Positions 5,885 through 35,675 of a stretch of DNA of 49,977 nucleotides are shown here, piece after piece. Origin of the DNA: Desulfobacterales bacterium (GTDB taxonomy: Bacteria > Desulfobacterota > Desulfobacteria > Desulfobacterales > SURF-7); contig JAQYVL010000037.1 in assembly GCA_030145525.1 (NCBI GenBank), forward strand, positions 1 to 49,977. The letters run 5' to 3'. Position numbers and translations under genes: made by a program. How positions within the stretch are numbered: the first letter of the stretch is position 1; each line of letters begins with the position of its first letter. The notes below the pieces were generated by a model. That model was not told the origin of the DNA, ran no database searches, and was given only the letters and a program-made list of their open reading frames with translations.

Positions 5885-6038
5885 ATAAAATGCTCAATAA
5901 TTTTAACAAACAGAGCAAAAATTAACTGGATTGTTTTCAAGAATAAAGCATTATTGAATCCCTGTTCGACATTCCGGCCCTTGTTGCCAATCCCGGTCTT
6001 CAGTTTCGTTTGATAATCTGTAATTAATCCCGTTATTT

Positions 6039-6599
6039 TTATATGGGTTTTGTTTTTTTTATCTCATCCGAAAGCAGTATTCTGCAGTAGCGGCAGAGCT
6101 GGTCAGATTTTTTGTCCACATCCTGTATGCCCCGACAATAATGCATTATGCAGGAAGAATCCTGGCAGTGCCTTAGATTAAAAGCATGCCCCAGTTCATG
6201 TACAGCCTCTTTACAAACCCTTGAATGAAAAGACTCTTCGGGTTTAACCGGTGAAAGAGCCTCTTCCAGGCGATGTGTGGAAATAATGGCTGCTCTGCCT
6301 CCGAGCTGAGCCTCCCCATAAACGTATGTTAAAATAGGAATGAAAAGATCAACCTTCGTCACAGCCAGTATTTTCAAAGATTTCGTGAGAGTGTTTTTGG
6401 ATAACATTTTAAGAATCAGGGTTGAATTGTATTGATCCCGATTATGATCATAAGCAAATGAAACATCTGAGAGAAGGGAGATGACTTCTGTGGGAAAGCC
6501 GAATATTCCGTTTACTTTACGGCCTACGATTTCAAAAAGTGAATTTTCGAAATCTCCTACCGGAGAAATTATAATAGTATGTTCAGGAAGGGTTTTCAA
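6039..6599 (-). CDS. Archaemetzincin-like zinc metallopeptidase (M54 family)
   Basis: The motif HELGHAFNLRHCQDSSCIM...CRYC matches the archaemetzincin signature HExxHxxGxxxCxxxxCxM...CxxC, with N at the G position. Its TTG start overlaps the stop of the upstream response regulator (TTGA). Confidence 0.75.
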   Translation of the reverse strand: MKTLPEHTIIISPVGDFENSLFEIVGRKVNGIFGFPTEVISLLSDVSFAYDHNRDQYNSTLILKMLSKNTLTKSLKILAVTKVDLFIPILTYVYGEAQLGGRAAIISTHRLEEALSPVKPEESFHSRVCKEAVHELGHAFNLRHCQDSSCIMHYCRGIQDVDKKSDQLCRYCRILLSDEIKKTKPI

Positions 6600-7939
6600 C
6601 TTGATTTATTAATACCGTAAGCCTTGATTTTGTTGTATAGTGTGGAGCGGTCAATTTCGAGGATTTTAGCGCTTTTTGAGATATTCCATTTGTTTTCATT
6701 CAAAATGGTTGTTATATGAAGTTTTTCTATTTCCCTGAGAGAAGAACTTCCTGGTAGATTTTGGTACTCAGCCCTGAAAAGAGGAAGATCGCCGGGTTGA
6801 ATGCTTCTACCTTTACCGACAACCACAGCTCGTTCAATTGCATTTTCAAGCTCTCTCACATTACCCGGCCATTCATAAATCATTATTTCATCCATTGCTT
6901 CACGACTGATGGTGTCGATTTGTTTTTTTGTTTCCTGAGAGAAGCGTCTTATGAAATGCTCGGCAAGAAGAGGTATGTCCTCTTTGCGCTTGCGCAGCGG
7001 GGGCATTTTGAAAGAGATGACATTCAGGCGGTAGTAAAGGTCCTCTCTGAAAATTCCTTCACGAATGGCTTCCTCCAGGTTTCGATTTGTTGCAGCGATA
7101 ACGCGGAAGTCAGCACTTATGGGTTGTGTGCCCCCCACGCGGTAGAAAACACGATCTTCAAGAACACGAAGAAGATCGATCTGCATCCGCATACTGATTT
7201 CACCGATTTCATCGAGAAAAATAGTGCCGCCGTGAGCCAATTCCAGTCTTCCTTTTTTGGTTTCTCTGGCATCGGTGAATGCACCCTTCTGGTGTCCGAA
7301 GAGTTCGCTTTCCATGAGATGCTCGGGAATGGAACCGCAATTAACAATTACAAAAGGGCCTTCAGAAAGAGGACTGGCAGTATGGATGGCCTTTGCTGCA
7401 AGTCCTTTCCCCGTTCCGGTTTCACCAAGTATCAGAACCGTTGATTCGACAGGAGCAATGTCCTGAATAAGATCGAAAACTTCCTGCATCGGAGGTGATT
7501 GTCCGATCATACTTTCAAAGCGTGTTCTGTCCTTATACTGTTCTCTCAGATAGAGGTTTTCCCTTGCCTGGGCCTGGTGCTTGATGATCTTATTAATGAG
7601 AACGCCCAGTTCACTCGGGTCAAAAGGTTTCAGCAGATAATCGTATGCTCCGTTTTTAATGGCTTCGATTGCGGTTGGAATAGACCCGTATGCAGTGATC
7701 ATTACGACTTCCACATCAGAATCATTTTCTTTCACATTCTTTAATACTTCAAGCCCGCTTATACCGCCCATTTTGATATCAACCAGGAGAATATCAAAGC
7801 GTACCGTTTTGATATTCTCAAGAGCTTCTTCACCGCTGCCTGCTTTTTCAACAAGGTGCCCGTCCCTTTCAAGCCATCCTGCAAGAGATTCCCTCATAAT
7901 CACTTCATCATCAACAATCAGAATTTTTGTACCGCTCAT
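6596..7939 (-). CDS. Sigma-54-dependent response regulator (NtrC family: receiver + AAA+ + HTH)
   Basis: The receiver domain is visible (ILIVDDE...DILLVDIKMGG). The AAA+ domain has a Walker A (GETGTGKG), a GAFTDA loop and ESELFGH. A C-terminal Fis-type HTH is present, and GGAGG lies 7 nt before the ATG. Confidence 0.92.
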   Translation of the reverse strand: MSGTKILIVDDEVIMRESLAGWLERDGHLVEKAGSGEEALENIKTVRFDILLVDIKMGGISGLEVLKNVKENDSDVEVVMITAYGSIPTAIEAIKNGAYDYLLKPFDPSELGVLINKIIKHQAQARENLYLREQYKDRTRFESMIGQSPPMQEVFDLIQDIAPVESTVLILGETGTGKGLAAKAIHTASPLSEGPFVIVNCGSIPEHLMESELFGHQKGAFTDARETKKGRLELAHGGTIFLDEIGEISMRMQIDLLRVLEDRVFYRVGGTQPISADFRVIAATNRNLEEAIREGIFREDLYYRLNVISFKMPPLRKRKEDIPLLAEHFIRRFSQETKKQIDTISREAMDEIMIYEWPGNVRELENAIERAVVVGKGRSIQPGDLPLFRAEYQNLPGSSSLREIEKLHITTILNENKWNISKSAKILEIDRSTLYNKIKAYGINKSS

Positions 7940-7954
7940 TAAGTGACCTCCATT

Positions 7955-9502
7955 TTACTTCTTGGCAGCAGATATTGCATGTATCGGAAGTTCGATTGAG
8001 AAACTTGTACCTTTACCCTCCGCGGATTTAACATTAATGGCGCCTCCATGTTCTTCAATGATCCCGTATGCCACCGAAAGACCAAGCCCCACTCCTTTAC
8101 CCTTCTTCTTGGTTGTGAAAAAAGGTTCAAACACTTTTGGAATGTTATCTTGAGGTATTCCAATTCCGGTATCCTTGAAAATGGCTTTAACTGTATTTTT
8201 TTTCAAAGAATGACTTGTTTTGATATTGAGAACACCTCCACCTGCAGATTCAATCGCTTCGGCTGCGTTTGATACAATATTCATAAAAACCTGTAGAATC
8301 TGGTCTTCCGACCCTTTAAGATCAGGCAGTTTCTGATCCAGTTTGGTTTCGATTCTTGCTCCGTCGATTTTTAGAAGATTCGAATTAAGAAAAAGCGTCT
8401 TTTCGATAAGCTGGTTGATATTGATTTTTTTAAGTTCCATCCTGGATTGGCGGGAGAAGGCAAGAAGGTTGGAGACTATTCTGCTGGTTCGCCTGGTTTC
8501 AGTTTCCATGAGATCCAGATACTGTCCGAACTGGTTATCTTTTTTTAGGTTTAAGCCATCCTCTTCTATGATTCGTTTCATCAGCATAATCAGGTTAAGT
8601 ATTCCTGCAATCGGATTGTTGATTTCATGCACTACTGAGGCTGAAAGCTTTCCAAGGGATGCCATTTTGTCCTGATGAAGGAGTTTCGCATGGGTTTCCT
8701 TAAGCTGTTTGGTTCTTTCTTCAACCATCTTCTCCAATCTTCTGGTGATTTCGGCTTCTTCCTGTTTGCTTTGTGAAATATCCTTGCTGATGTGGATAAA
8801 TTTGGAAATTTTTCCATCTTTTTCCCAAATGGGATAGATGTTGACTTCGTAATATCGCTTTTCGCCGTTCGGCATACGCCGTGTTTGTACCTGACGGCAC
8901 TGTCTTTTGTTTCTGATAACATCTTTTAGCGGGCAGTCAACCTTGCTCTCGTCGCATGGATGATCAATCTTATGATAAATCTGATAGCATTTTTTTCCTA
9001 TGACGTTTTTACGGCTGTATCCTGTTTTTTGGAGAAAGGCTTCATTGACTTCAACAACTTTCATATCAGGTGTCAATACAAGGATAAAGTCACGAATCCC
9101 GTCAATTATGGTCTCGATTTCTTTGGTGCGTTCCCTTAGTTTGCGCTCCTCAAGGCTGATTGCAGTCCATAGAATTTCAAATGTTTGAAATGACAGGAGT
9201 CTGATATTCTTCGGTTTTGTGGCAAGTACATCCTCTAATATTTCCATTTCCGGAGTCATCAGAATAAGAAGCTGCAGATCATAATCCGGTGAATACAGTC
9301 TGTGGTAATCTGTCTCGGTTTTGAGCCCGAGTTTTTCTGCAAATAAAATTCCCGGCGCATCATGGTCGGGATCTGCGACGGCGATTATTTTTGCATCAAT
9401 TTCATGGCGATATTCAAACGTTGACTTTGTAAGAAAATCCTTGCAGAATGTGCCGCCGCCGATGAGGGCTATGTTCATGATAACATGTTTTTTAGGCAAC
9501 AT
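7955..9502 (-). CDS. Cytoplasmic sensor histidine kinase: Rossmann-like N-domain + Cys-rich PAS + HisKA + HATPase
   Basis: The H-box (SASVVHEINNPIAGI) and the N/G boxes (NIVSNAAEA, DTGIGI, GKGVGLGLSV) are present. The PAS region has four Cys. The N-terminus is NIALIGGGTFCKDF...IIAVADPD, and no TM segment is visible. Confidence 0.9.
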   Translation of the reverse strand: MLPKKHVIMNIALIGGGTFCKDFLTKSTFEYRHEIDAKIIAVADPDHDAPGILFAEKLGLKTETDYHRLYSPDYDLQLLILMTPEMEILEDVLATKPKNIRLLSFQTFEILWTAISLEERKLRERTKEIETIIDGIRDFILVLTPDMKVVEVNEAFLQKTGYSRKNVIGKKCYQIYHKIDHPCDESKVDCPLKDVIRNKRQCRQVQTRRMPNGEKRYYEVNIYPIWEKDGKISKFIHISKDISQSKQEEAEITRRLEKMVEERTKQLKETHAKLLHQDKMASLGKLSASVVHEINNPIAGILNLIMLMKRIIEEDGLNLKKDNQFGQYLDLMETETRRTSRIVSNLLAFSRQSRMELKKININQLIEKTLFLNSNLLKIDGARIETKLDQKLPDLKGSEDQILQVFMNIVSNAAEAIESAGGGVLNIKTSHSLKKNTVKAIFKDTGIGIPQDNIPKVFEPFFTTKKKGKGVGLGLSVAYGIIEEHGGAINVKSAEGKGTSFSIELPIHAISAAKK

Positions 9503-9858
9503 TAACTCCCTTTTTGCAGGGCCTGCCGGGTTTATTTAAGAGGAGCGGAATCGATAGACCATGCCCGTTTATTGAACGCCATAATCGCATTATAACATTA
9601 CCGTCGTCATCCTGTTAGCAGCTTTGATTTTGCGAAACCCTATCATGGCCGGCATTCCGTTTTCAAGGTAAAATTTTGCCAGGATTGTGAACTCCTGAGT
9701 TTATATCCATTCCAAAAAATTGCGCTATTGGTGCGGATAAATTGGGGTTGACAAAATTTGATATTGATGGGAAGAACGGTGTAACTACCACGGAACAGTG
9801 TGTTTTAACGCGGAAAGACCTTCTTAAATAGTTTTAAGAAGAGGTGTTTGGAGGGTGT

Positions 9859-12800
9859 ATGACCAAGAAAGTCATTGGATCTGTTATGGTTTTAGGCGGA
9901 GGTATTGCAGGAATGCAGTCCGCTATAGACCTGGCCAACTCAGGATACTATGTTTATCTCGTCGAAAAATCATCAGCCGTTGGAGGGCTGATGTCCCAGC
10001 TTGATAAGACCTTCCCAACCAACGACTGTGCCATGTGAATTATATCACCCAAACTGGTCGAGGTCGGCCGGCACATAAATATTGAACTATTGACAAACAG
10101 CGAGCTTGAAAGTCTTGAGGGCGGACCCGGTAATTTCAAGGTCCGTGTGAGACAGGAACCGCGCTTTATTGATCTGTCCAAATGCACAAGCTGTGGAGAG
10201 TGTGATAAAGTATGCCCTGTTGAACTCCCAAATGAATATGATGAAGGACTTTCAACCAAAAGAGCTGCTTTTAAAAAATATGCCCAGGCAATCCCCGGTG
10301 CTTTTGCAATAGATAAAACGGATAATGCGCCATGCCGTTTGGCGTGCCCTGCCGGACTTAATGTTCAGGGCTACGTTCAAATGGTGAAGCAGGAAAAATA
10401 TGAAGAGGCGCTGCAAATTATTATGGAAGACCTTCCTCTTCCGGGAGTTCTCGGACGCATCTGTCCGCATGGCTGTGAAGATGCCTGCCGCCGATGCGAG
10501 GTGGAGGAGCCGGTCGCAATCTGTAAATTGAAACGACTTGCTGCCGACCGGTTTGATCCAAGGGATGTCAAAATTGATTGTCAGCCTGAAAAGGAGGGCA
10601 AAGTTGCGATTATCGGTTCCGGTCCGGCAGGCCTTTCTGCTGCCTATCATCTTGCACGTAAAGGGATCCAATCGACAATTTTTGAATCTTTGCCAAAGCC
10701 CGGCGGGATGCTGAGAGTGGGGATCCCGGATCATCGACTTCCCCCCGAAGTTCTTGACAGGGAGATAGAGGTCATAACAAACCTCGGTGTTGAGATAAAG
10801 ACGAATACTCCCCTCGGTCCTGAGTTGGCGATTGATGACCTTTTGGGGGATGGATACAAAGCGGTATATCTGGCAATGGGGGCTCATAAAGGTATTGAGC
10901 TTGGCATACCGGGGGAAAAAGCGGAAGGCATCCGCCAGGGAGTTGATTTTTTAAAAGAGGTAAACCTGACCGGAAAGGCAGAGGTTGGGAAAAAAGTTGC
11001 GATAATAGGCGGCGGAAATGTGGCGATTGATGTTTCCCGATCTGCAATAAGGCTTGGTGCAGAAGAAGTTACGATAATTTATCGCCGAACGAGAGCAGAA
11101 ATGCCTGCATGGGAAGAAGAAATCCATGCCGCTGAGGAAGAAGGTGTCGGAATAACTTATCTGTCGGCCCCCCAGGAAGTTCTTGTTCAAGAAGGCAGAG
11201 TCAGAGGCCTTCGATGTATCCGGATGGAGTTGAGTGAACCGGATTCATCCGGCCGCAAGAGGCCTGTTCCTGTTCCCGGAAGTGAATATGATATAGAGAT
11301 TGATCAGATTATTCCTGCAATCGGCCAAAGGCCGGATTTGTCTGTGATAGAGGATGTGACCGGTCTCACTTTTTCACGTTGGGGAACGACAGAAGTGAAT
11401 GCGGTAACCTATGCCACTGAGCGAGAAGGTGTTTTTGCCGGTGGAGACCTGCAGACCGGCCCATGGGTAGCCATAGGCGCAATCGCCGCAGGTCGTGAGG
11501 CGGCGGAATCTATCGCAAGATTCATAGATGGGCTTGATATGGAAGAGGGTCGCGAGCCTGTTGTAAATGAAAGCCCTGTTTATCGTCCGATTCCCGAGGA
11601 TCAGGTTAAGCAGGCAAGAGAAAAATTACCGGAACTGCCGGTAGAAGATCGTAAAGGTAATTTTAAGGAAGTGGAACTGGGCTTTGATGATGATGCCGGG
11701 CAAAAGGAAGCGGCAAGATGCCTTAATTGCGGCTACTGCTCCGAGTGCTTGCAGTGCGTTGATGTTTGTCTGGCAGGTGCAATTGATCACAGTCAGAAAA
11801 CTGAAATGAAAGAAATAGAAGTAGGCTCGGTAATCCTTTCCGCAGGAAGCAGGCCTTATGATCCTTCCGCTTTGGATGAATTTTATCATTACAAGACAAA
11901 TCCAAATGTCCTTACCAGCCTTGAGTTTGAAAGAATTTTAAGCGCTTCAGGCCCTACAATGGGGCATCTCGTTAGACCATCTGACAATAAGGAACCCAAA
12001 AAAATTGCCTGGCTTCAGTGCGTCGGATCAAGGGATAACAATAAGTGCGGCAATGGATATTGCTCTTCAGTTTGCTGCATGTATGCCGTTAAGGATGCAA
12101 TGATAGCCAAAGAGCATTCGAAAGAAGATCTGGACTGTGTTGTCTTCAATATGGACATCCGAACATTTGGTAAAGATTATGAAAAGTATTATAATCGTGC
12201 AAAGGACAAGGAAGGCGTCCGGTTCGTAAAAGCCAGAATCCATACCATCGGTGAAATCAGGGAAACCGGTGATCTTAACATTCGGTATGTGGACGACTCA
12301 GGCGCAATCTGTGAAGAAATATTTGATATGGTTGTGCTTTCCGTGGGTCTTCAAATAGAAGAATCAACGATTCAACTGGCGAAAAAGCTTGAAATTGATC
12401 TTGATAAATACAGTTTTGCCGATACACAACCCTTCACTCCTGTTGTGACCACGAGACCCGGGATATATGCATGTGGTGCTTTACAGGGGCCAAAGGATAT
12501 TCCGAGTTCGGTTACCGAGGCAAGTGCTGCCGCTGCCGCTGCCGGAATTTGTCTTGCAGACGCACGCGGTACCTGCACAAAATCTGTTGAAATTCCCGAG
12601 GAGATGGATGTCAGCGGTGAGGAGCCAAGGATTGGTGTATTTGTATGTAACTGCGGCATAAACATAGCCGGAGTTGTTGATGTCAAAGCTGTGGAAGAAT
12701 ACGCAAAAAGTATTCCGGGAGTGGTGTTCAGTACTCAAAATCTGTTTACCTGTTCCCAGGATTCACAAGACCAGATGAAGGAAATAATCAAGGAAAATAG

Positions 12801-14292
12801 ACTTAACAGAGTAGTCGTTGCCGCATGCACTCCGAAAACTCATGAAGGAATATTCATGGACACTCTCGAGGCTTGCGGTTTGAACAAATACCTTTTTGAA
12901 ATGGCAAATATTCGCAATCAGAATTCATGGCCGCATTCTGATGAGCCTGATACGGCAACGCAAAAGGCAAAAGATCTGGTGAGGATGGCGGCTGCCAGAG
13001 CGGCGACCCTCACACCGTTACATGAAAAAAAGATTTCCGTTATAGAAAGGGCACTGGTAATCGGAGGTGGCGTTTCCGGTATGAATGCCGCGTTAAATCT
13101 GGCGGATCAAGGATTTGAAGTGGTTCTGATAGATAAAGAGGCGGAACTGGGAGGCATGGCTAAACACCTCACGGAGACAATTGAGGGTGAAAATATAAGC
13201 ATTTACCTTGAAGAGCTCATTCGAAAGACTACTTCACATCCCAGGATTCAATCTTTGACGAACTCACTTGTTGTGGGGTTTTCGGGCTTTAAGGGGAATT
13301 TCAACACCGAAATACTGGTGGGGCCCGGTATGTATGAAAGAAAGATTGAACACGGTGTGGTCATTCTTGCAACAGGTGCAAATGAATATCAGCCCAAGGA
13401 GTTTCTTTATGGAGAAGATGAAAGGGTTGTAACCCAGGTCGAGCTTTCACAACAACTTGATGAAAAAGGGGCAGAGGGCCTTGACAGGGTAATCATGATC
13501 CAGTGCGTGGGATCAAGAAATGATGAAAATCCCAACTGTTCAAGGATTTGCTGCCAGGCCGCCATAAAAAATGCACTGCACATCAAGAAGCTTCGCCCTG
13601 ATACCGAAGTATTTATTCTTTATCGAGATATTAGATCATATGGTCTTCTTGAAGATTATTATACCGAGGCCAGAAAGCTCGGGGTTATTTTTTCACGGTA
13701 TGAGGCGGATAATCCGCCTGAGGTTAAAGTTGAGGATGGAGAGCTTTTTGTTACTTTCAGGGATCATGTTCTTGGTTGTGATCTAAAGGCGAGCGCTGAT
13801 ATTCTGGCCTTAAGCGCCGGTATGATAGCGGAGGATACGGAAGAACTCGCTTCGATCGTAAAGCTTGCGCGAAATGCGGAAGGCTTTTTTATGGAAGCAC
13901 ATGTAAAGCTCAGGCCTGTAGAAATGGCTACGGAAGGAATATTTATTTGCGGCACGGCCCATAGCCCCAAACTTATTACCGAGTCAATCGCCCAGGCACA
14001 GGCTGCGGCATCAAGAGCGGTTACCTTCCTTTCACAGTCCAGTTTGACCCTGTCGGCTGTTGTTGCGGAAGTAGAGGGAGAAAAGTGTGCTTCCTGCCTT
14101 ATTTGTGTACGCTCCTGTCCTTATGGCGTACCAAAAATAAATGAGGAGGGTGTCAGTGAGATCGATGAAGCCCTTTGTCACGGGTGTGGTGTTTGTGCAG
14201 CGGAATGTCCGGCTAAAGCGATTGAGCTTCACTGGTACGAGGATGATCAGTTACTTAGCAAGGTAGAGGCTTTGCTGGAAGGGGTGTTATGA
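9859..14292 (+). CDS. hdrA: Giant HdrA-like flavoprotein (tandem HdrA modules with embedded GltD/NfnB-like NAD(P)H module), selenocysteine at TGA 10036..10038
   Basis: ORFs 9844..10038 and 10090..14292 are in the same frame and separated only by one TGA. Read-through gives [18 protein letters not shown], the conserved HdrA DCxMC motif. GxGxxG FAD sites, the VGSRD...CSxxCC motif (twice) and 4Fe-4S CxxCxxCxxxCP motifs are present. GGAGGG precedes the ATG at 9859. Confidence 0.85.
10054..10071 (+). promoter_or_regulatory. Candidate bacterial SECIS hairpin for the hdrA UGA
   Basis: CUGGUC-GAGGUC-GGCCGG forms a 6-bp stem including G-U pairs, with a 6-nt loop containing GGUC. It starts 15 nt after the UGA. 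Confidence 0.4.
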
Positions 14293-14744
14293 AGCAGGAT
14301 TTTGAACCGATTATCGTCTCGTTTTGCTGCAATTTCTGAGGGTATACGGCAGCGGACCTGGCAGGTTCGATGAGGCTTAGCTATCCTACAAGTATTAAAA
14401 TTATTCGAGTTCCATGTACCGGCAAGGTAGATGTTATCCATATTCTCAGATCCTTTGAAAAAGGAGCGGATGGAGTTTATGTGGTCGGATGTATGGAAGG
14501 AGACTGCCATTTTAATAAAGGCAATTTTAGAGCCCGAAAACGGGTGGAACAGGCTCAAAAACTGCTGGAAGATATCGGAATCGGTGGGGAACGGGTAAAG
14601 ATGTACAACCTTTCTTCGAGTGAAGCGCCGCTTTTCGTAGAATATGCCAAAGAGATGTCAGAGAAGATTCTTGAACTTGGACCCAATCCGATTAAGGAGG
14701 CAAAAAAAAGTTTACGCGGGCAAAATGAGGCTGTCTCCGGCTGA
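14289..14744 (+). CDS. mvhD: MvhD/FlpD-like [2Fe-2S] protein with selenocysteine at TGA 14337..14339
   Basis: The ATG at 14289 overlaps the hdrA stop (ATGA). The frame is continuous with ORF 14370..14744 through one TGA. The translation [27 protein letters not shown]...IIRVPCTGKVD matches the MvhD motif CCNWCxYxxADxAG, with Sec at the Cys position. Confidence 0.8.
14353..14369 (+). promoter_or_regulatory. Candidate bacterial SECIS hairpin for the mvhD UGA
   Basis: CGGACC-UGGCA-GGUUCG forms a 6-bp stem with a 5-nt loop containing GG. It starts 13 nt after the UGA. Confidence 0.4.
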
Positions 14745-14823
14745 TTCCGAGTCTTTTGTCCGGGTCACTTTTTTGAGCTTTAACCCATGAACAAGAAACC
14801 ATATTATCTGTGAAGGTGTCTTT

Positions 14824-15492
14824 ATGATTGTTGCCGAAAGAAAACCGATTGATGAAATTATTGAAAAGATAAAGGATTACAATAAAATTCTTCTTTTGGG
14901 ATGTAATGAATGTGTTACGGTTTGCGAGGCCGGTGGGAAGAAGGAAGTCGGTGTGCTCGCCTCAGCTCTTCGAATGTATTTTTTGAATAAGGGAAAAGAG
15001 ATACTTATTGATGAAATTACCCTGGAGCGGCAGTGCGATCACGAGTATCTTGAAGAAATTCGCGACAGGATCGATCAATATGATGCCGTACTTTCCCTTG
15101 CCTGTGGTGTGGGCGTGCAGTTCATGGCTGATAAATATTTGTCAACACCAGTGTATCCAGGTGTTAATACATGCTTTTTAGGTGCTACGGAGAAGAGGGG
15201 GCTGTGGACCGAGAGGTGTCAGGCCTGCGGGCAGTGTATTCTCGCAAGCACCGGCGGAATCTGTCCTATATCCCGTTGTGCCAAGCGTGTTTTAAATGGT
15301 CCGTGCGGAGGGTCAACCAATGGTAAATGTGAACTCAGTAAAGAGCTTGATTGCGCCTGGCAGTTGATCATAGATCGGTTAAAAGCGATGGACAGGCTGG
15401 ATGATTATGAAAAACTGGCGGATATAAAGGACTGGTCCTCTGATAGGGCCGGGGGACCCAGAAAAGTTGTCAGGGAGGATGTTCAGGAATGA
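14824..15492 (+). CDS. metV: MetV-like Cys-rich small subunit of methylene-THF reductase (MTHFR C-terminal-like domain)
   Basis: Cys clusters are present (GCNECVTVCEAGG; CQACGQCILASTGGICPISRCAK...GPCGG). Its stop overlaps the metF start (ATGA). The gene order matches the known hdr-mvhD-metVF clusters. Confidence 0.75.
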   Translation: MIVAERKPIDEIIEKIKDYNKILLLGCNECVTVCEAGGKKEVGVLASALRMYFLNKGKEILIDEITLERQCDHEYLEEIRDRIDQYDAVLSLACGVGVQFMADKYLSTPVYPGVNTCFLGATEKRGLWTERCQACGQCILASTGGICPISRCAKRVLNGPCGGSTNGKCELSKELDCAWQLIIDRLKAMDRLDDYEKLADIKDWSSDRAGGPRKVVREDVQE

Positions 15493-16418
15493 GCGAAAAA
15501 ACATCAAGCAAACTGGAAAGAATTCTTGCCTCAGGCAATCTTGCCGTAACATCTGAATGTGGGCCGCCCCGAGGCACTGATCCTGAAGCGATTATTGAAA
15601 AAGCAAATCTGATAAAGGATTATGTCGATGCGATTAACATAACGGATAATCAGACCTCTGTTACTCGGATGTGCAGCCTGGCAGCGTGTATCCGGCTGAA
15701 ACTTATGGGCCTGGAGCCGGTTCTTCAAATGGTGACCAGAGATCGAAACAGAATTGCTTTGCAAAGCGATATTCTTGGCGCGGCTTCCTTTGATATTAAT
15801 AACATGCTATGCCTTTCAGGTGACCACCAGAGCTTTGGTGACTGTGCAGCAGGGCAGAACGTTCATGACCTTGACTCAATGCAGCTCCTTCAACTGGTGA
15901 GGAAAATGCGGGATGAAGGGAAATTTCTGGGTGGAGATGAGATTAAACGTCCTCCAAAAATGTTTGTCGGTGCTGCGGCCAACCCTTTTGCAGATCCATT
16001 CGAAATTCGGGTACCCCGCCTTGCAAAAAAGGTCGCTGCCGGTGCTGAATTTATTCAGACTCAATGTATTTATAATCTGGATAAGTTTGAGAAATGGATG
16101 GAAGGAGTCAGAGAGCGGGGTTTGCACGAGAAAGTCCATATCCTCGCGGGCGTTACCCCGTTTAAATCAGCCGGTATGGCACGATATATGAAAAACAGAG
16201 TGCCTGGTATGGATGTCCCTGATGATGTGGTCAAGAGGATGGCGGACACGCCAAAGGAAAAACAGGCGGAAGAAGGAATCAACATCTGTGTGGAATCGAT
16301 CCAGCGTCTTAAAGAAGTTGAGGGAGTTCATGGATTTCATGTGATGGCCATTGAATGGGAAGAGAAAGTCCCGGGAATAATAGAAAGGACAGGGCTCTAC
16401 CCCAGACCCGAAGTATAG
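15489..16418 (+). CDS. metF: Methylenetetrahydrofolate reductase
   Basis: The 309-aa protein has the MTHFR pattern (ECGPPRG, INITDNQ, RDRNRIALQSDILGA, FVGAAANP, GAEFIQTQ). It is translationally coupled to metV. Confidence 0.88.
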   Translation: MSEKTSSKLERILASGNLAVTSECGPPRGTDPEAIIEKANLIKDYVDAINITDNQTSVTRMCSLAACIRLKLMGLEPVLQMVTRDRNRIALQSDILGAASFDINNMLCLSGDHQSFGDCAAGQNVHDLDSMQLLQLVRKMRDEGKFLGGDEIKRPPKMFVGAAANPFADPFEIRVPRLAKKVAAGAEFIQTQCIYNLDKFEKWMEGVRERGLHEKVHILAGVTPFKSAGMARYMKNRVPGMDVPDDVVKRMADTPKEKQAEEGINICVESIQRLKEVEGVHGFHVMAIEWEEKVPGIIERTGLYPRPEV

Positions 16419-16600
16419 ATTCGTGTATACCTAAAAATGGCTGTTTACCCAGTTTCTACTTCAGGCTTAGATTATAATCCTTAAAATACTCCATAGTAAT
16501 ACTGCGGTTAAATTCTCGCCTTTTTGAATTTGAATAAAATTTTTTATTTATAGATGTATATCAGAATTGAATGTCCGCTCTTTAGGAAAGAGGGGAACGC

Positions 16601-16629
16601 TTGACATCCGCGAAGTCAGCAGATATAAA
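16601..16629 (+). promoter_or_regulatory. Sigma-70-like promoter TTGACA-N17-TATAAA
   Basis: The -35 is a consensus match, the spacer is exactly 17 nt and the -10 is near consensus. It lies about 114 bp upstream of the CheY-like gene. Confidence 0.4.
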
Positions 16630-16742
16630 TTGAACAGGTGTGTGTCGATTTGGAAGGCGGGATCGAATGATTGCCACAACGCTCGGGCGTGAAATTTTTT
16701 AATTAATAAATATAGATAGTTATAGTATTTAAGGGGGGAGGC

Positions 16743-17129
16743 ATGAGCGATAAAAAGACGATTCTTGTTGTTGATGATGAGCCTGATTTTGCTTCAATTG
16801 TACAGGCAAATCTCAAAAAGGAAGGCTTCAACGTAGAAGTGGCCTATGACGGTGTAGAAGCCCTCGAAAAGGTTAAGGCAAATCCGCCGGACGCGATTGT
16901 ACTCGATGTCATGATGCCTGAAAAGGACGGATTTGAGGTATGTTCGGAATTGAAAAAAGATGAAAAGTACATGGATATTCCCATTATCATGCTTACAGCT
17001 GTTGCAGACCATGTCAGTTCCACAAGATATTCTCATCATAGCGGGATGAGCATGGAGGCTGATGATTATCTTCCAAAACCAGCTTCCGCAGAAGACATTC
17101 TAGAAAGTGTAAAAAGTCTTCTTGAATAA
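16743..17129 (+). CDS. Stand-alone response-regulator receiver (CheY-like)
   Basis: The sequence ILVVDDEPD...DAIVLDVMMPEKDG...MLTA...KP is a 128-aa receiver domain only. A GGGGGGAGG RBS precedes it. Confidence 0.85.
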   Translation: MSDKKTILVVDDEPDFASIVQANLKKEGFNVEVAYDGVEALEKVKANPPDAIVLDVMMPEKDGFEVCSELKKDEKYMDIPIIMLTAVADHVSSTRYSHHSGMSMEADDYLPKPASAEDILESVKSLLE

Positions 17130-17382
17130 GGTATAATACCGGATTTTCACTTCATTTTTTTTTACACCAAATTGAGTAAATTTCCCGGGAAGAGCCGTTG
17201 AGGTTTAAGCGGCAGTTGACCTCTTTTACATCTTCCCGGAATTGATTCCGGGCGTTAATGGGGATTAAATCTGTTTCGAGATTGCAGGCCCTCTTTTTAA
17301 ATACCTTTAAGATGAATCGGCATTTTGTATAATCCGGAGTAATTTTTTCCCCACATCCCCCCCAAGCCAAACGGGTACAGGC

Positions 17383-18201
17383 ATGAAGACTTTTTGTATC
17401 TTAGGAGACGAACGTTCTTTTCGGTCAAAATCTCCGGTTATTTTTTCTGCGGTATTGAAGAGAGTCGGGATAAGAGGCGTGTATGTTCCTTTCAAGGTTG
17501 ATAAGGGGCAAATCGGTCCTGCAATGCAGAGTCTCAGGATTCTCAACATTGATGGCGCAAATATAACAGTGCCTTATAAGGAGACAGTCATACCGCATTT
17601 GGATATTCTTTCCGAAGGGGCCAATATTATAGGGGCGGTTAATACGGTCGTAAGAAATGGAGAAACGCTTAAAGGTTATAATACAAACGCAATTGGTTTT
17701 ATGGATACTCTGGAAGAGGTTGGATTTGATGTCGCAGGCAAGACTGCAGTTGTTTTCGGAACAGGGGGGATTGCAAAAGCAGTTGTTTTTATCCTTAACT
17801 GGCTTCGGGCGGAGCCGATTCTGGTTGCCGGCAGGGATGAAAACAGTATCTCCGGAATTGTAAATAAAATTGGCGGCATACCAAAACCGCTTCAAACATT
17901 TAACGATGCTCCTGTGTCTGCAAATATTGTAGTGAATGCGACCTCTGTTTCAAGCCCTGATGAGTCGCCGGAGCTGGCGGAACTTGTTGATCGGCTTGAT
18001 ATCAGAGACTGTGAAGTTTTAATGGATGTCAATTATGGCCGGGAAGTAAATTTTTGGGAGAGTAAAGCCCGGGAAAAAGGAATCAGATTTTTGGATGGAC
18101 TTTCCGTGCTGGCTCATCAGGCAAGAAGAAGCTTTTCGCTCTGGACAAGAATTGATGTGGAGGTTGAAGAGTTCCGAAAGGCATTGGAAAAGGATCTATA
18201 A
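17383..18201 (+). CDS. aroE: Shikimate dehydrogenase-like protein (AroE family, NTN instead of NTD motif)
   Basis: NITVPYKE, GAVNTV and the GTGGIAKA Rossmann motif are present. The canonical GYNTD reads GYNTN. Confidence 0.8.
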   Translation: MKTFCILGDERSFRSKSPVIFSAVLKRVGIRGVYVPFKVDKGQIGPAMQSLRILNIDGANITVPYKETVIPHLDILSEGANIIGAVNTVVRNGETLKGYNTNAIGFMDTLEEVGFDVAGKTAVVFGTGGIAKAVVFILNWLRAEPILVAGRDENSISGIVNKIGGIPKPLQTFNDAPVSANIVVNATSVSSPDESPELAELVDRLDIRDCEVLMDVNYGREVNFWESKAREKGIRFLDGLSVLAHQARRSFSLWTRIDVEVEEFRKALEKDL

Positions 18202-18209
18202 GAGGGAAA

Positions 18210-19697
18210 ATGCGTTCAGAATTAGAAAAAGAATATCTGTTAAAAGCAATCGATGCTTCAAAAAGAATATTTTTTATTATTTCACCTGATTTTGAAATCC
18301 TTGCAACCAACAGATACACCACGGAAAAGTATGGGCCCGATATGATCGGCAAGAAGTGCTACAACCTTTTGTGTGATTGGGAGTCGCCCGGTGACAATTG
18401 CCCTGCCCTGAATGTAATTCAGGGGTTGGAACCTGTTTTACGGAAAAAAAATAATGAGGACTCTTCCGATAAATGGACCACGTGCCGTTATTCGTATCCT
18501 ATATTTTCAGGAGAAAAAATTGACGCCGTCGCCGTATTGGAGTTTGATCGACCTTCTCGGGAAGAGATAGAGGAACAATTAAGACACGCCAATGCATTTT
18601 TTAAAAATCTTATTTTGAGTTCCGTGGATGGTGTTATTGCAGCGGATAAAACAGGGAGGATTTTGATTTTCAATGATGCGGCGGTGGAAGTCAGCGGTTA
18701 CAGTGTTGAGGAAGCGCTTGGCAATCTGGATATTCGTGATTTTTATCCGGGAGATGCAGCCCGGGAGATCATGCAAAAGTTAAGAAGTGATGATTTCGGA
18801 GGTAAAGGTAAGCTTAAATCATATCAAGTGGATGTGATCAAAAAAGATAGAGAAATCATCCCGATCAGATTGAATGCAGCCATTGTTTATAAGGGTGATA
18901 AGGAGGTGGCTTCAATTGGCTTTTTTCATGATATGCGTGAAGATCTTCGCATTAAATCCGAACTTGAAAAAACTCAAAGTCAACTTCTTCAGGCAGAAAA
19001 AATGTCTTCTTTAGGCAAGCTGTCTGCGGGTGTCGCTCATCAGTTGAATAATCCGCTTGGAGGAATTACTCTTTATACCAAATTTCTTTTAGAGGATTAC
19101 GATCTGGCAGATGATGCGAAGAAGGACTTGAATCGTATTCTGCAGGAGGCTAAGAGGTGCAGCGACACGGTTAAGGAACTTTTAGAATTCGCAAGACAGA
19201 CCAGCCATATGGTAAAACCGAATGATTTAAACAAGGCGCTTTTGAGGACTATGTTTTTGCTCGAAAATCAGACGCTTTTTCAGAACATAGAAATTGAAAA
19301 AAACTTCAAGGAAAATCTGCCGCAGGTTCCGGTAGATATACAACAGATGAACCACGTGTTTATGAACATAATTTTGAATGCGGCACAGGCTATGGATGGG
19401 AAAGGAACATTGACTCTGACAACCAAATTCGCTCCGACAGGAGACAGGGTTATTGTTGAAATAGCTGATACGGGTCCAGGAATACCTGAAGATACCCTGA
19501 AACACATTTTTGAACCGTTCTTTACAACCAAGGAGGAGGGAAAGGGTACGGGACTCGGGTTGAGCATGGTTTATGGAATTATAGAAGACCATGGCGGAAA
19601 AATAACTGCTAAAAGCAAGGTTGGCAGCGGTACTACCCTGATAATTGAGCTTTCGCTAAAAACGGCTAATGAAGGGGGAAAAGAAAGTGGAGAATAA
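18210..19697 (+). CDS. PAS-domain sensor histidine kinase (cytoplasmic)
   Basis: It has a Cys-containing N-terminal sensor region ([21 protein letters not shown]), a PAS domain, an H-box ([15 protein letters not shown]) and an HATPase domain ([16 protein letters not shown]). Confidence 0.9.
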
Positions 19698-21174
19698 ACT
19701 TGACACCGGAAGAGTTCTCGTTATCGACGATGAACAGGTATTGAGAGATGGTGCGGAACGGATACTTATCCGAATGAATTTTCAGGTGTTCAAAGCTTCA
19801 CGAGGGGATGAGGGATTAAAAATTCTGGAAAAAGAACCTGTTTCAATCGTCCTTTTGGATATGAAAATGCCCGGCATGGACGGAATGGAGGTTCTGAAAC
19901 GTATCAAGGAGATGGAAAGAGGCATTCTTGTGATTGTAATCACCGGTTTTGCCACTGTTGAAACAGCGATTGAAGCCATGAAACGAGGGGCTTATGATTT
20001 CATTCCAAAACCTTATGAGCCGGATCAACTGCGGATTGTTGTAAACCGTGCTCGTGAGAAAATGCAGCTGCAGCAGGAAACCGAAAAACTTGAAAAAGAA
20101 CGGAGGCGTACCCTTGCAGATCTGCATACATCGCAAAGCCGGGTTTATACGATTATCGAGTCGTTGCCGAATGGTGTGCTGGTAACCGATACAAATGGAA
20201 AGGTAGTTCTTTTAAATCCGGCTTTCCGTCAGCATCTTGGGATTGCAAGGGATATGGAGCCGGGAGGAGAGCTTGCATCGTATATAGATGATGAAAATCT
20301 CTGTAAGCTTATTATCGATATTTCACGCGGGAAATACGTGGATTTTGATGATATTCCAAATTATGAGCTGAATCTTGCCGGCGGAAAGTTCCTATTGGCA
20401 AGAGCAAGACCTGTTCTGGGGGAGAAAAGGGAATGCCTGGGGGCCGTGACAAATATCATGGATGTTTCCGCAATGAAGGCGCTGGATCAGTTGAGATCCG
20501 AGTTTGTTGCGAAAGTCTCCCATGAGCTGCGTTCGCCTCTTTCTACGATCCACGAACAACTCGCAATGGTTTTGAACGATATGGCCGAAGGGGCATCAGA
20601 GAATGAACAGCATATCATTTCCCGTGCAAAGGAAAAAACAAAGGGGCTTATCTCTTCAATAGGTGATTTGCTCGACCTGTCTCGAATAGAAGCGGGGATT
20701 GTATCAAAGGAATCAAAACCGGTTCAGGTGGGAGAACTTTTGAAAAGCATAGTTGACTTTCTTGGTGCGAGAGCAACCGCAAAAAAGCAGACACTTGAAC
20801 TTGAAATAAGCGGCGAGCCCCTTCCTACGATTTATGCTGATCCAATGGCTCTTGAAAGTGTATACGGAAATCTGATAACAAATGCAACAAACTACACACA
20901 GGAAGGCGGTGAAATTAAAGTTATTGCTGACAAGGCCGGGGCAAATTTGAGAGTTGTCGTGAAGGACAACGGTTATGGTATTGATGCAAAATATATGGGA
21001 AAGATATTTGAGAAATTTTATCGGGTCAAAAATGAAAAAACAAGATTCATAACCGGTACAGGCCTTGGATTGCCCATCGTAAAAGGTATTGTTGATTCGC
21101 TGGGAGGCTATATAGATGTGGAAAGTGAAACAGGAAAAGGAACGTCCTTTACCGTCCTGTTACCGATAAAATAA
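19669..21174 (+). CDS. Hybrid receiver-PAS-histidine kinase
   Basis: It has an N-terminal receiver (VLVIDDEQ...LLDMKMPGMDG), a PAS domain, a HisKA domain (FVAKVSHELRSPLSTI) and an HATPase domain (DNGYGI, GTGLGLPIV). The start is uncertain: the ORF overlaps the upstream gene by 29 nt, and a GTG near 19686 is possible. Confidence 0.88.
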   Translation: MKGEKKVENKLDTGRVLVIDDEQVLRDGAERILIRMNFQVFKASRGDEGLKILEKEPVSIVLLDMKMPGMDGMEVLKRIKEMERGILVIVITGFATVETAIEAMKRGAYDFIPKPYEPDQLRIVVNRAREKMQLQQETEKLEKERRRTLADLHTSQSRVYTIIESLPNGVLVTDTNGKVVLLNPAFRQHLGIARDMEPGGELASYIDDENLCKLIIDISRGKYVDFDDIPNYELNLAGGKFLLARARPVLGEKRECLGAVTNIMDVSAMKALDQLRSEFVAKVSHELRSPLSTIHEQLAMVLNDMAEGASENEQHIISRAKEKTKGLISSIGDLLDLSRIEAGIVSKESKPVQVGELLKSIVDFLGARATAKKQTLELEISGEPLPTIYADPMALESVYGNLITNATNYTQEGGEIKVIADKAGANLRVVVKDNGYGIDAKYMGKIFEKFYRVKNEKTRFITGTGLGLPIVKGIVDSLGGYIDVESETGKGTSFTVLLPIK

Positions 21175-23394: not shown

Positions 23395-24824
23395 TGTTTG
23401 AGACAATCGCAAAGCGTCATTTGTGTTTTCTGTTTATCATGTCAGTTCTCCTGCATTTTAGTGAAGCAGGGGCAAGGGAGGCGCCGGAAGATAACGTCAT
23501 CCTGCCGGGAAGTTTCAGCCATCTTGCGGAATCCGTCAGCCCGGCAGTGGTTAATATCAGAACCGAAAAGATTACAAAAGGCGGCGGTCGGGTATTCCGC
23601 CATTTCCCCAGACGTCCATTCGGCCATGATGATCCTTTTAATGATTTTTTTGAGAGATTTTTTGGAGATGACCCTAAGCGGGAGCACAAGCAGAGGAGCC
23701 TTGGCTCAGGTTTTATAATTGATCAGGATGGACATATCGTCACAAACAGTCATGTTATTGAAAATGCTGATAAAATTAAAGTAATACTAAAAGATGGTAA
23801 GGAATTTGAAGCCAAGGTGGTCGGTCTTGATTCAAAGACGGACATTGCCCTTATAAAGGTTGATCAGAAACAGAATTTGCCTTCTGTGAAGTTTGGAGAT
23901 TCTGAAAGTCTCATGGTCGGTCAATGGGTTGTCGCCATTGGAAGTCCATTCGGTCTTGAGCAGACTGTAACAGCCGGTATTGTAAGCGCAAAAGGGCGTG
24001 TAATCGGCTCCGGTCCGTATGACGATTTTATCCAGACTGACGCATCTATTAACCCGGGCAATAGCGGCGGCCCTCTACTGAATATGGATGGTGAGGTGAT
24101 CGGGATTAACACGGCTATTATAGCAAGTGGCCAGGGAATCGGCTTTGCCATTCCGATTAATCTCGCAAGGGGTATCATAGCTCAGCTTAAAGATCATGGG
24201 TCGGTGATACGCGGCTTTTTAGGTGTATCGATTCAGAATTTAAGCAAGGATCTTGCTGAGTATTATAATATCCAGGATGGGAGAGGCGTTTTTGTCGTCG
24301 AGGTCGTTCCAGGAGGCCCTGCAGATAATGCAGGCATTGCTGCAAAAGACATAATTCTGGAGGTGAACGGCAAGAAATTGGAAACCAGTCGCGCATTGTC
24401 TGGTTTGGTTGCGGATACTGCAGTTGGTAAGACAATTGAAATGAAGCTGCTTCGCGATGGAGAGAATAAAATAATCAAGGTCGAGATTGGAAGGATGGAG
24501 GATGAGAAAATTCAGTCCGGTCTGCCTTCAGAGCAGAGAGAAGAAGATCTTGGATTAGAACTCACTGAACTTACGGATGATATCGCTAAAGAATATAATT
24601 TGACTGAAACAACGGGTGTGATTGTCGTAGATGCGGAGCCTGACAGTAAAGGTGAAGAAGCGGGAATTTTACATGGTGATGTTATAAAGGAGATCAATCA
24701 CAATCCCGTAAAAAATTTGAAAGGCTTTAAAAAAATTCTTGAGGAAATGAAAAGCGGAGAATTGATTCAGATATTTATAAAGCGGAAAAATGTGGGATTT
24801 CTGGTTTTCAGAATTACGAAATAG
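23391..24824 (+). CDS. degP: Periplasmic serine endoprotease DegP/HtrA (two PDZ domains)
   Basis: It has a signal peptide, catalytic H/D/S motifs (TNSHV, DIALIKV, GNSGGPLLN) and two PDZ-like segments. Confidence 0.92.
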   Translation: MMFETIAKRHLCFLFIMSVLLHFSEAGAREAPEDNVILPGSFSHLAESVSPAVVNIRTEKITKGGGRVFRHFPRRPFGHDDPFNDFFERFFGDDPKREHKQRSLGSGFIIDQDGHIVTNSHVIENADKIKVILKDGKEFEAKVVGLDSKTDIALIKVDQKQNLPSVKFGDSESLMVGQWVVAIGSPFGLEQTVTAGIVSAKGRVIGSGPYDDFIQTDASINPGNSGGPLLNMDGEVIGINTAIIASGQGIGFAIPINLARGIIAQLKDHGSVIRGFLGVSIQNLSKDLAEYYNIQDGRGVFVVEVVPGGPADNAGIAAKDIILEVNGKKLETSRALSGLVADTAVGKTIEMKLLRDGENKIIKVEIGRMEDEKIQSGLPSEQREEDLGLELTELTDDIAKEYNLTETTGVIVVDAEPDSKGEEAGILHGDVIKEINHNPVKNLKGFKKILEEMKSGELIQIFIKRKNVGFLVFRITK

Positions 24825-24870
24825 TTACAGCCCCGGAAAGCGTTGCAGAATAAAATACGTATTTTCAAAA

Positions 24871-25730
24871 ATGCAGATAAATAAACCTCATGTTAGGGCT
24901 TTATCCCCTGCAAAAATAAATCTTTTTTTAAAGGTGACAGGCAAAAGACCCGATGGATACCACAATCTCCATACCCTCATGTGTGGAATTACGCTTTTTG
25001 ATAATCTTTTGTTTGAATTTGACGAATCGAATATCCGTGTGTGTTGCTCTCATCCTGAAGTGCCCGAGAACAATTCCAATCTGGTGTGGAGAGCCGCAGA
25101 TATTTTTTTAAGAAACATGGACAGAATCTGCGGCATAAAAATCACTATTGAAAAAAGATACCGGTTGGCGCGGGCTTAGGTGGCGGGAGCAGCAACGCTG
25201 CAACAGTGCTGAAAGTTCTTAATAAATATTTCGGTTTAAAATTTTCAGATGATAAACTCAGGGATATAAGCCTTGAGATCGGTGCAGATGTCCCCTTTTT
25301 TATCAGTGGCAGACCAGCTGTTGCGGAGGGGGTCGGAGAGAAGCTTCAAATAGTTGATCAGTTGAAGCCTTTTCATGTCTTATTGGTCAATCCCGGGTTC
25401 AGTGTTTCAACAGCAAAGGTTTATAAAAACCTTAATTTAGGATTGACAAAATGTGAAAAAAAAATTACAAAGACTCTTTTTAACGGTATATCAGTTGATA
25501 TCCCTGAAATTTTATGTAACGACCTTGAAACCGTTACGGCAAAAATGTTCCCTGACATTGAGAGGGCTAAAGCGCAACTGATTCAGGCAGGTGCCGAAGG
25601 GGCGCTGATGTCCGGCAGCGGGCCGACTGTGTTCGGCCTTTTTTCTGATGCGGATCAGGCTAAAAAAGCATATGGGGGGCTCGGACAGTTCAGTGAGAAA
25701 AATAAATTTTTGGCGGAGCTGATCGTTTGA
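24871..25730 (+). pseudogene. ispE: 4-diphosphocytidyl-2-C-methyl-D-erythritol kinase, interrupted by a 1-nt frameshift in the A6 run at 25151..25156 (possibly a sequencing artefact)
   Basis: The N-terminal part (LSPAKINLFLKVTGKRPDGYH) lies in frame 1 and stops at 25179. The GHMP motif IPVGAGLGGGSSNAA is read only after shifting frame inside GAAAAAAG. Adding one A restores ...ITIEKKIPVGAGLGGG. Confidence 0.85.
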
Positions 25731-34300: not shown

Positions 34301-34370
34301 GGTTTCCTCCTAACTTCCTGAAATACACATTAATAATAAAATAATGAAAGCGATCAAATAAATATTAAAA

Positions 34371-34425
34371 AATCGGGATATACACCATATTTCAATATTC
34401 CAAATAAGTAATGCATATCCCGATT
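34371..34425 (-). promoter_or_regulatory. Perfect 11-bp inverted repeat (AATCGGGATAT ... ATATCCCGATT) in the 166-bp AT-rich rnfA-rnfB gap
   Basis: The repeat is seen directly. All other rnf junctions are 14 nt or less or overlap. Confidence 0.4.
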
Positions 34426-34466
34426 GATTTGGTACCTTCCTGCATCATCCAAAAAGTCTAACCTTG

Positions 34467-35039
34467 CTATACCATCCCCTTGAAGGCGTAAAACGCAAGC
34501 GCAATCATACCGGCGGTTACAAGGCCGATTGAAGTGTCCTGGAGAGGTTTGGGTACCCTGGCGAGCAGAATTCTTTCCCGCACACCGGCGAAAAGGATAA
34601 GGGCCAAACCAAATCCAACAGCATAGGCAAATGAGGCGACCAGTGATTGCATAAACGTAAATTCTTTGTCAATATTCAGAATACATACACCCATAACTGC
34701 ACAGTTCGTTGTGATCAGAGGGAGAAAAATTCCCAGACCGGCATAGAGTGCCGGAATTGATTTTTTAAGAAACATCTCTACAAACTGGACAAGAGAGGCA
34801 ATTACGACGATGAAAGCGATTGTCCTTAAATAAACAAGATTGAACTCGACGAGAACATATGTAAAGATCAACCAGGTAATTGTGCCTGCCAACACAAGAA
34901 CAAATATGACGGCCATAGACATTCCCACAGCGGTCTCCATCTTTTTGGAAGTTCCCAGAAAAGGGCAATTTCCAAGAAACTGGGCAAGAAGGATGTTGTT
35001 TACAAAAATACATGCAATAATAAGTTCGAAATAGCCCAT
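34467..35039 (-). CDS. rnfA: Rnf complex subunit A
   Basis: The 190-aa polytopic membrane protein begins ...ACIFVNNILLAQFLGNCPFLG, the RnfA/NqrE pattern, and sits in the expected position in the rnf cluster. Confidence 0.9.
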   Translation of the reverse strand: MGYFELIIACIFVNNILLAQFLGNCPFLGTSKKMETAVGMSMAVIFVLVLAGTITWLIFTYVLVEFNLVYLRTIAFIVVIASLVQFVEMFLKKSIPALYAGLGIFLPLITTNCAVMGVCILNIDKEFTFMQSLVASFAYAVGFGLALILFAGVRERILLARVPKPLQDTSIGLVTAGMIALAFYAFKGMV

Positions 35040-35053
35040 TTTATTTTCTCCCG

Positions 35054-35665: not shown

Positions 35666-35675
35666 ACTGTTCTCC

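Follow-up and report, generated by a model that had tools for sequence, protein, structure and literature searches.

A 49,977-nucleotide contig of an uncultured Desulfobacterales bacterium (GenBank assembly GCA_030145525.1, contig JAQYVL010000037.1; the whole stretch is hereafter the window) carries two open reading frames (ORFs), 9844..10038 and 10090..14292, that share one frame and that a mechanical ORF list separates at a single TGA, 10036-10038, the sole interruption between them. Does this codon end a short peptide, or is it decoded as selenocysteine (Sec) within one long gene? The comparisons described below make it very probable that UGA 10036-10038 is a Sec codon inside one continuous gene, hdrL. 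A sequence-only reading of the locus had already pointed to the split and had proposed that read-through restores a continuous HdrA-type segment; the ORF list bears out the former and translation through the TGA the latter. Its description of the gene as HdrA-like stands as regards the HdrA-type domain; the product is not a plain HdrA and belongs to the HdrL subtype, a fusion of HdrA with a GltD-like part.

The interrupted frame and its cysteine column

The start of hdrL was placed at ATG 9859 because homologues begin with MxKKxIGS at the equivalent methionine. From there, Pfam and NCBIfam matches (HdrA2/HdrA and the glutamate-synthase small-subunit family) give an HdrA-type thioredoxin-reductase-like FAD domain, a GltD-like insert, the remaining part of HdrA and a second HdrA-like half that ends in C-terminal ferredoxin motifs. 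The insert is a GltD- or glutamate-synthase-small-subunit-like NAD(P)H module (Fer4_20 and Pyr_redox_2) that occupies residues ~155-556 inside the HdrA-type sequence. The protein scores 566 bits against PRK12771 (cutoff 516 bits) and 950 bits against NF040770, below the 1100-bit cutoff of the latter because it is a fusion. A single large polypeptide that combines HdrA domains with a GltD-like NAD(P)H part, followed by mvhD as the next gene, is the mark of HdrL (Strittmatter et al. 2009), and both the domain and the motif are those of the HdrA selenoprotein family (COG1148 / NF040770, CxxU).

Solved HdrA structures can be aligned gap-free with residues 8-163 (E = 1e-52 for 5odc), and the TGA falls on the second Cys of DCxMC-I-x-x-PK, the CxxC motif of HdrA, with no domain boundary or gap at that point. 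The motif DKTFPT-x-DC-x-x-(C/U), aligned to 5odc, lies on the thioredoxin-reductase-like FAD domain; the residue facing the TGA is Cys197 in 5odc (DCSICI) and a non-standard X197 in 9sfi (DCAM-X-I). The latter is Sec197 of Methanococcus maripaludis HdrA, where it is linked to a cysteine between FAD and a [4Fe-4S] cluster, and the 2026 paper on the structure of the M. maripaludis Hdr-Vhu-Fwd assembly proposes a thiol/selenol relay at this residue (PMC13518236). Full-length Desulfobacterales homologues of HdrL have Cys in the same column and are encoded as single genes. The earlier claim that the TGA takes the Cys position of a conserved HdrA segment is thus upheld by 5odc, by 9sfi and by 23 Cys-type Desulfobacterales homologues. 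The N-terminus is missing from every one of the closest protein homologues (~80% identity), as would be expected of gene calls truncated at a TGA; besides, many database homologues have frameshifted tails.

These alignments bear directly on the possibility that the codon is a genuine stop, with a 59-aa peptide followed by a separate protein of ~1400 aa that starts at TTG 10090 or at a later ATG. Such an arrangement matches the mechanical ORF list and the normal use of TGA as a stop elsewhere in the window, and termination is expected as a side reaction under selenium limitation. As an account of the locus it is nevertheless highly improbable: it would sever the GxGxxG FAD-binding beta-alpha-beta unit (residues 11-40) from a domain that is continuous in the solved HdrA structures, it runs against amino-acid conservation that is uninterrupted across the codon and against Cys-type homologues that are single genes, and it leaves unexplained the invariant hairpin that accompanies the TGA.

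A constrained hairpin downstream of the UGA

This hairpin starts 15 nt past the UGA and consists of a 7-bp stem, CUGGUCG/CGGCCGG, capped by the apical loop AGGU (-10.2 kcal/mol); the AAA that precedes it (10051-10053) is nearly invariant. The sequence-only reading had drawn the same hairpin one pair shorter, as a 6-bp stem with a GAGGUC loop, and folding confirms its position and its distance from the TGA. We take the GGUC of the loop region to resemble the apical loop of fdhF. When folded as an isolated 24-nt piece, the hairpin has z = -2.9 relative to shuffles, 2/200 of which fold equally well, and it is the minimum free energy (MFE) structure of the 65-nt region 10036-10100. It also lies within all four published constraints of the bacterial selenocysteine insertion sequence (SECIS) in the model of Zhang & Gladyshev, as summarised in PMC13188914. 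The model allows an apical loop of 3-9 nt closed by an upper stem of 4-16 bp (here 4 nt and 7 bp), with a G at the first or second loop position and in most cases a G or U after it (here A-G-G-U, the sole natural variant being A-G-U-U in 9/60 genes), and it sets a distance of 16-37 nt from UGA to apical loop (here 22 nt, 10039-10060) and an MFE <= -7.5 kcal/mol.

The evidence that carries most weight is comparative. A scan of species-representative genomes gave 80 loci, all of Desulfobacterales type, the best match being a Desulfosudis oleivorans genome bin at 88% identity. In 83 related genes, the codon of the TGA column is TGA in 60 (the window included) and TGC or TGT in 23. Fifteen nucleotides past the TGA, the 18 nt CTGGTCGAG(G/T)TCGGCCGG are invariant in all 60 TGA genes apart from the (G/T) position, synonymous sites included. 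Codon entropy over the +5 to +11 region of these genes is given as zero at six of the seven codons; departures are recorded at codon +9, which is GTC or, in 9/60 genes, TTC (a loop change, Val to Phe), and at codon +5, which is AAA in 57/60. Codons +6 to +8, +10 and +11 (CTG GTC GAG ... GGC CGG) show no variation, and they include 4- to 6-fold degenerate Leu, Val, Gly and Arg codons. In the same TGA genes, conserved residues outside the hairpin (Gly -18, Gly -17, Val -28, Gly +28 and Gly +31) are each written with 3-4 codons, and relatedness therefore cannot explain the conservation of the hairpin.

The 23 Cys genes use 2-6 codons at each of the same seven positions, and their consensus fold is empty. 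The specified hairpin has an energy of -10.2 kcal/mol in 60/60 TGA genes versus -3.1 to +11 kcal/mol in the Cys genes, while the mean MFE of the region is -10.4 versus -4.7 kcal/mol (Mann-Whitney p = 2e-13). The hairpin is a constrained element coupled to the TGA, and it is under selection only together with the UGA codon. A paralogous HdrL group, which has a Cys-type MvhD (~44% identity to that of the window) and no metVF downstream, keeps the hdrL TGA and the same hairpin, often with a GAGTTC loop variant (Val to Phe). The exception is L072, where a Cys codon (TGT) stands in the column and the hairpin is missing. Another difference between the two sets of genes lies at position -2 of the codon, occupied by Ala in 58/60 Sec genes and by Ser in 21/23 Cys genes of the genome set; M. 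maripaludis HdrA likewise reads DCAM-Sec. As a Sec-specific signature, Ala at -2 was rejected as lineage-specific: many metagenomic Sec genes read DCSM-U and some Cys proteins DCAMC.

The coupling also holds in a metagenome collection that was scanned with the 18-mer CTGGTCGAGKTCGGCCGG as the sole criterion. The 18-mer occurred 124 times, 89 of them in an hdrA-type context (PTN-D/E-C-x-x-*), and each of these 89 stands exactly 15 nt after a TGA, with no case behind a Cys codon; the remaining 35 are chance matches in unrelated genes encoding LVE(V/F)GR. Because the hdrA-context matches cover classical HdrA-like sequences as well as HdrL, the element is common to the bacterial Sec-HdrA family. 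An independent metagenome assembly (L081, ENA scaffold ERZ23491058) is 99.86% identical to window 10020-21108, with 16 mismatches and no gaps, and thus represents a strain-level relative sampled elsewhere. It has the same hdrL TGA and hairpin, with a synonymous ATA to ATT change between them. The gene call deposited at ENA for this scaffold shortens mvhD, the gene downstream of hdrL, to 87 aa, and the mechanical ORF list of the window splits both hdrL and mvhD, in line with the earlier claim that automated calling misses the recoding. The short HdrL call on the same scaffold was rejected as proof of calling stopped at the TGA, since the scaffold begins at window 10020.

A second UGA, the rival readings and the gene neighbourhood

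The features discussed are collected in Table 1. Besides hdrL, a second gene of the operon, mvhD, contains an in-frame UGA with comparable properties. Its product matches PF02662 (E = 4e-39); with the N-terminus omitted, the match begins at profile position 21. The C14-x-x-U17 motif stands against FLCNWC-S-Y in Cys homologues, and the column holds TGA in 35 related loci and TGY in 15. Codons +5 to +9 (GCG GAC CTG GCA GGT) are invariant in the 35 TGA loci and variable in the 15 Cys loci, and the downstream hairpin (-8.2 kcal/mol, z = -2.5), which lies 20 nt from the UGA, is missing from the latter. An FlpD domain, a UGA on the CxxC column and a downstream hairpin are what is expected of an MvhD/VhuD selenoprotein, a listed CxxU family (PMC13188914). 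In a six-frame scan of the window, 10036 and 14337 were the only credible in-frame TGAs; the others fell in non-coding frames or at gene junctions.

Table 1. Features of the hdrL-mvhD-metVF locus, in window coordinates, with the related paralogous loci.
Feature	Position	Strand	Details and basis
hdrL	9859..14292	+	1477 aa read through UGA at codon 60; translation, domain matches, homologue starts
UGA very probably read as selenocysteine (U60), C57-x-x-U60 motif	10036..10038	+	Structure alignment; 60 TGA vs 23 TGY; independent assembly
Predicted bacterial SECIS hairpin of hdrL	10054..10071	+	Stem 10054-10060/10065-10071, loop AGGU 10061-10064; folding, conservation, bacterial SECIS constraints
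mvhD (FlpD family)	14289..14744	+	151 aa through UGA at codon 17; ATG overlaps hdrL stop (ATGA)
Second UGA, predicted selenocysteine (U17 of MvhD)	14337..14339	+	CxxU motif FCCNF-U-GY; TGA/TGY column
SECIS-like hairpin of mvhD	14353..14369	+	Stem CGGACCU/AGGUUCG, loop GGC 14360-14362
metV (methylene-THF reductase C-terminal-type small subunit)	14824..15492	+	PF12225, E = 5e-37
metF (methylenetetrahydrofolate reductase)	15489..16418	+	PF02219, E = 4e-38; conserved downstream position
Paralogous HdrL loci			L015, L024, L026, L031, L033, L037, L040, L042, L046, L049, L054, L055, L060, L064, L072, L080

A UGA read through without Sec, by a reassigned code (Trp or Gly) or by near-cognate or Cys-tRNA suppression, would suit a window in which the Sec machinery is not seen, and some uncultured lineages do reassign UGA. 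We give this explanation very little credit. TGA is the ordinary stop of 13/37 window genes, hdrL, mvhD and metV among them; this excludes a global reassignment, and the recoding is therefore site-specific and not a change of code. Furthermore, the only two credible in-frame TGAs in 50 kb lie on redox Cys columns of known selenoprotein families, each with a SECIS-type hairpin at the canonical distance, in a lineage (Desulfobacterales) where selABCD and these very selenoproteins are documented. Finally, a sequencing or assembly error in a TGC/TGT Cys codon, or a recent inactivating mutation that makes the gene a pseudogene, would be in keeping with two disrupted genes elsewhere in the window and with the frameshifted tails of many homologues, but it can hardly be entertained when the same TGA recurs in 59 other related genes of independent assemblies, in 89 metagenome contigs and in the 99.86%-identical assembly (which adds its own synonymous change before the hairpin), when it is always paired with a hairpin that Cys-codon genes lack, and when the rest of the 4.4-kb frame is intact.

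Several observations nonetheless weigh against Sec at codon 60. No selA, selB, selD or tRNA-Sec gene was found in the 50-kb window by a tRNA search and by the domains of about 45 ORFs, the only tRNA being tRNA-Gln, and the decoding machinery of the organism is therefore assumed. No Rfam SECIS family matched positions 9950-10200 at E up to 10, nor the whole window at the gathering score; since bacterial SECIS elements are diverse, this absence says little. The 65-nt region 10036-10100 is no more stable than its shuffles (z = -0.56), and single-sequence folding of that region was accordingly dropped as stand-alone evidence: folding energy alone is weak evidence either way, and the above-chance case is the comparative one. 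As the stem never varies in the 60 genes, the structure has no compensatory base changes in its support and covariation analysis was impossible; synonymous-site entropy and TGA coupling were used instead, so that the case rests on sequence conservation and on the coupling to TGA. With ispE frameshifted and a nifS-like gene interrupted by a TAA, the assembly or the genome is not error-free. Lastly, the support for Sec at codon 60 is drawn entirely from sequence.

If UGA 10036-10038 is the Sec codon that we take it to be, the hairpin at 10054-10071 would act in the mRNA as a bacterial SECIS and recruit SelB-GTP-Sec-tRNA(Sec), as established bacterial Sec biology leads one to expect, and the ribosome would insert Sec at codon 60 in place of termination. 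The predicted product is a 1477-aa flavo-iron-sulfur protein whose C57-x-x-U60 pair would sit at the position of the Cys/Sec197 pair beside the FAD of archaeal HdrA. By homology with Sec197, the two residues probably serve as a redox-cycling selenylsulfide beside the flavin. The translationally coupled mvhD downstream would be recoded likewise at codon 17, through its own hairpin. Gene order suggests that HdrL, MvhD and MetVF probably form a soluble complex. Via the GltD-like insert, such a complex would couple NAD(P)H to the interconversion of methylene- and methyl-tetrahydrofolate in the Wood-Ljungdahl pathway, and would probably also tie this step to ferredoxin by flavin-based electron bifurcation or confurcation. 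The proposed coupling draws on the analogy with the acetogen Hdr-MvhD-MetVF system and on proposals made for HdrL in sulfate reducers.

The order hdrL-mvhD-metV-metF is kept in about 50/80 related loci, in Sec and Cys forms alike, and a domain search of the neighbours found no hdrB or hdrC (CCG-domain) genes adjoining it. The operon is flanked by a histidine kinase and a sigma-54 regulator upstream and by a response regulator and shikimate dehydrogenase downstream. On the upstream side, window 6596-9502 (-) holds a divergent PAS histidine kinase and a sigma-54-dependent response regulator; on the downstream side, a stand-alone receiver, a PAS kinase and a hybrid kinase occupy 16743-21174 (+). 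These signalling genes suggest a regulated, possibly sigma-54-dependent, expression of hdrL-mvhD-metVF. Farther along, an Rnf-type cluster (32213-39152, -) comprises RnfA/E-like, FMN-binding RnfG-like, RnfD-like and RnfC-like genes, with Rnf at 34.5-39.2 kb. It is preceded by a multihaem cytochrome c gene (38523-39152) and followed by a gene for a 694-aa protein (32213-34300) that joins RnfB-like Fe-S domains to a GltD-like NAD(P)H module. The cluster fits a ferredoxin/NADH-centred energy metabolism.

The two disrupted genes are observations in their own right. In the ispE gene (GHMP kinase), the reading frame shifts by one base within an A6 run at window 25151-25156, which leaves two ORFs (24790-25179 and 25206-25730), and the motif KKIPVGAGLGGGSSNAA is readable in the second frame; the split has the look of an assembly error at a homopolymer or of a true frameshift. 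A class-V aminotransferase gene (47525-48706, -), coding for a NifS/IscS-like cysteine desulfurase, has an in-frame TAA at 47978-47980 where homologues have Glu (GAGQ-*-KGYRAGTEN; GAA to TAA), either a nonsense mutation or a base-call error. Pyrrolysine or Sec was rejected for this position, the stop being TAA and not TAG or TGA.

Significance and relation to known systems

Recoding of HdrL and MvhD is already known in sulfate reducers, and the present result mainly corrects an annotation; it does not change what is known of selenoproteins or of Hdr enzymes. Standard gene callers split or shorten hdrL and mvhD, two genes of a central energy-metabolism operon, and this miscalling deprives HdrL of its FAD-binding N-terminus and both predicted proteins of the redox-active CxxU motif. 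As selenoprotein genes, the two would mark the organism as a Sec user and suggest that the methyl-branch (MetVF-linked) electron-transfer module depends on selenium. What is mildly new is the rigidity and the spread of the 18-nt SECIS, which no Rfam family covers: CUGGUCGAG(G/U)UCGGCCGG is identical in about 150 independent genes, from HdrL orthologues and paralogues to classical HdrA-like genes. The hairpin is also a cheap and specific marker, and the pattern of a TGA, 15 nt and CTGGTCGAGKTCGGCCGG could rescue miscalled hdrA and hdrL genes in metagenomes. More tentatively, and with the balance of our judgement somewhat on the side of doubt, the SECIS of bacterial hdrA and hdrL may constitute an RNA element of its own, with an invariant sequence. 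If so, the complete absence of covariation could reflect recognition of base identity, and not of shape alone, by SelB or, alternatively, a recent spread of the whole 5' module of Sec-hdrA by horizontal transfer. Together with Sec-MvhD, it would make the methylene-THF (tetrahydrofolate) reductase step of the Wood-Ljungdahl pathway directly selenium-dependent in these sulfate reducers.

The literature agrees with the sequence-only reading that Sec-HdrA is known from Methanococcales (PMC13518236) and from deltaproteobacteria (PMC2702500, PMC5109826), and that no new protein class is involved, Sec forms of HdrA, HdrL and MvhD having been reported in 2009 (PMC2702500). HdrA itself is a listed CxxU selenoprotein family (PMC13188914). 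Desulfobacterium autotrophicum HRM2 has Sec-containing HdrA1/A2, HdrL1/HdrL3 and MvhD1-3,5 together with selABCD (Strittmatter et al. 2009, PMC2702500), and in Desulfococcus multivorans Sec-HdrA and Sec-MvhD are annotated as split locus tags, selABCD being reported as well (PMC5109826).

HRM2 offers the closest parallel. Its HdrL1 and HdrL3 are large heterodisulfide reductase/glutamate synthase fusions with mvhD downstream of them and Sec in both proteins, and it belongs to the same order of complete-oxidising sulfate reducers. The present locus, compared with HRM2 by description, differs in coming from an uncultured relative of Desulfosudis (Desulfococcus) oleivorans and in lying directly upstream of metV-metF. 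Desulfococcus oleovorans Hxd3 has been stated to be without HdrL (PMC2702500). The D. oleivorans genome bin that gave the best match carries the 88%-identical hdrL-mvhD-metVF locus at 6001-12618, with both TGAs present; the 2009 statement may thus be an artefact of split gene calls, a suggestion based on this related bin and not on the Hxd3 genome.

The hairpin shares with the E. coli fdhF SECIS and the bacterial consensus its place directly 3' of the UGA and its small apical loop with G followed by G or U, and its spacing and stability are within the limits of the bacterial model. It differs from the fdhF element in a sequence that is unrelated outside the loop and in having no evident bulged U, and from the consensus in being invariant over 18 nt in about 150 genes, with no structural covariation. 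The bacterial model is a stem-loop directly downstream of the UGA within the coding region; the archaeal SECIS follows a different structural model (PMC13188914). At the protein level, HdrL shares with M. maripaludis HdrA (Sec197; PDB 9sfi; PMC13518236) the same residue column, the motif DCAM-U-I and the same thioredoxin-reductase-like FAD domain, with about 50-60% identity over roughly 155 residues. The archaeal protein has ~658 aa, an N-terminal ferredoxin domain and HdrBC and Vhu/Fdh as partners, whereas HdrL carries the GltD-like insert and a second HdrA-like half and has no hdrBC beside it.

Finally, the operon resembles that of the Moorella thermoacetica-type HdrCBA-MvhD-MetVF complex in uniting an hdrA-type gene, mvhD, metV and metF. 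In contrast to the Moorella type, hdrB and hdrC do not adjoin, HdrL with its fused NAD(P)H module takes the role of the HdrA-type subunit, and HdrL and MvhD are both predicted selenoproteins; the complex and its reaction direction are here predictions from the genes.

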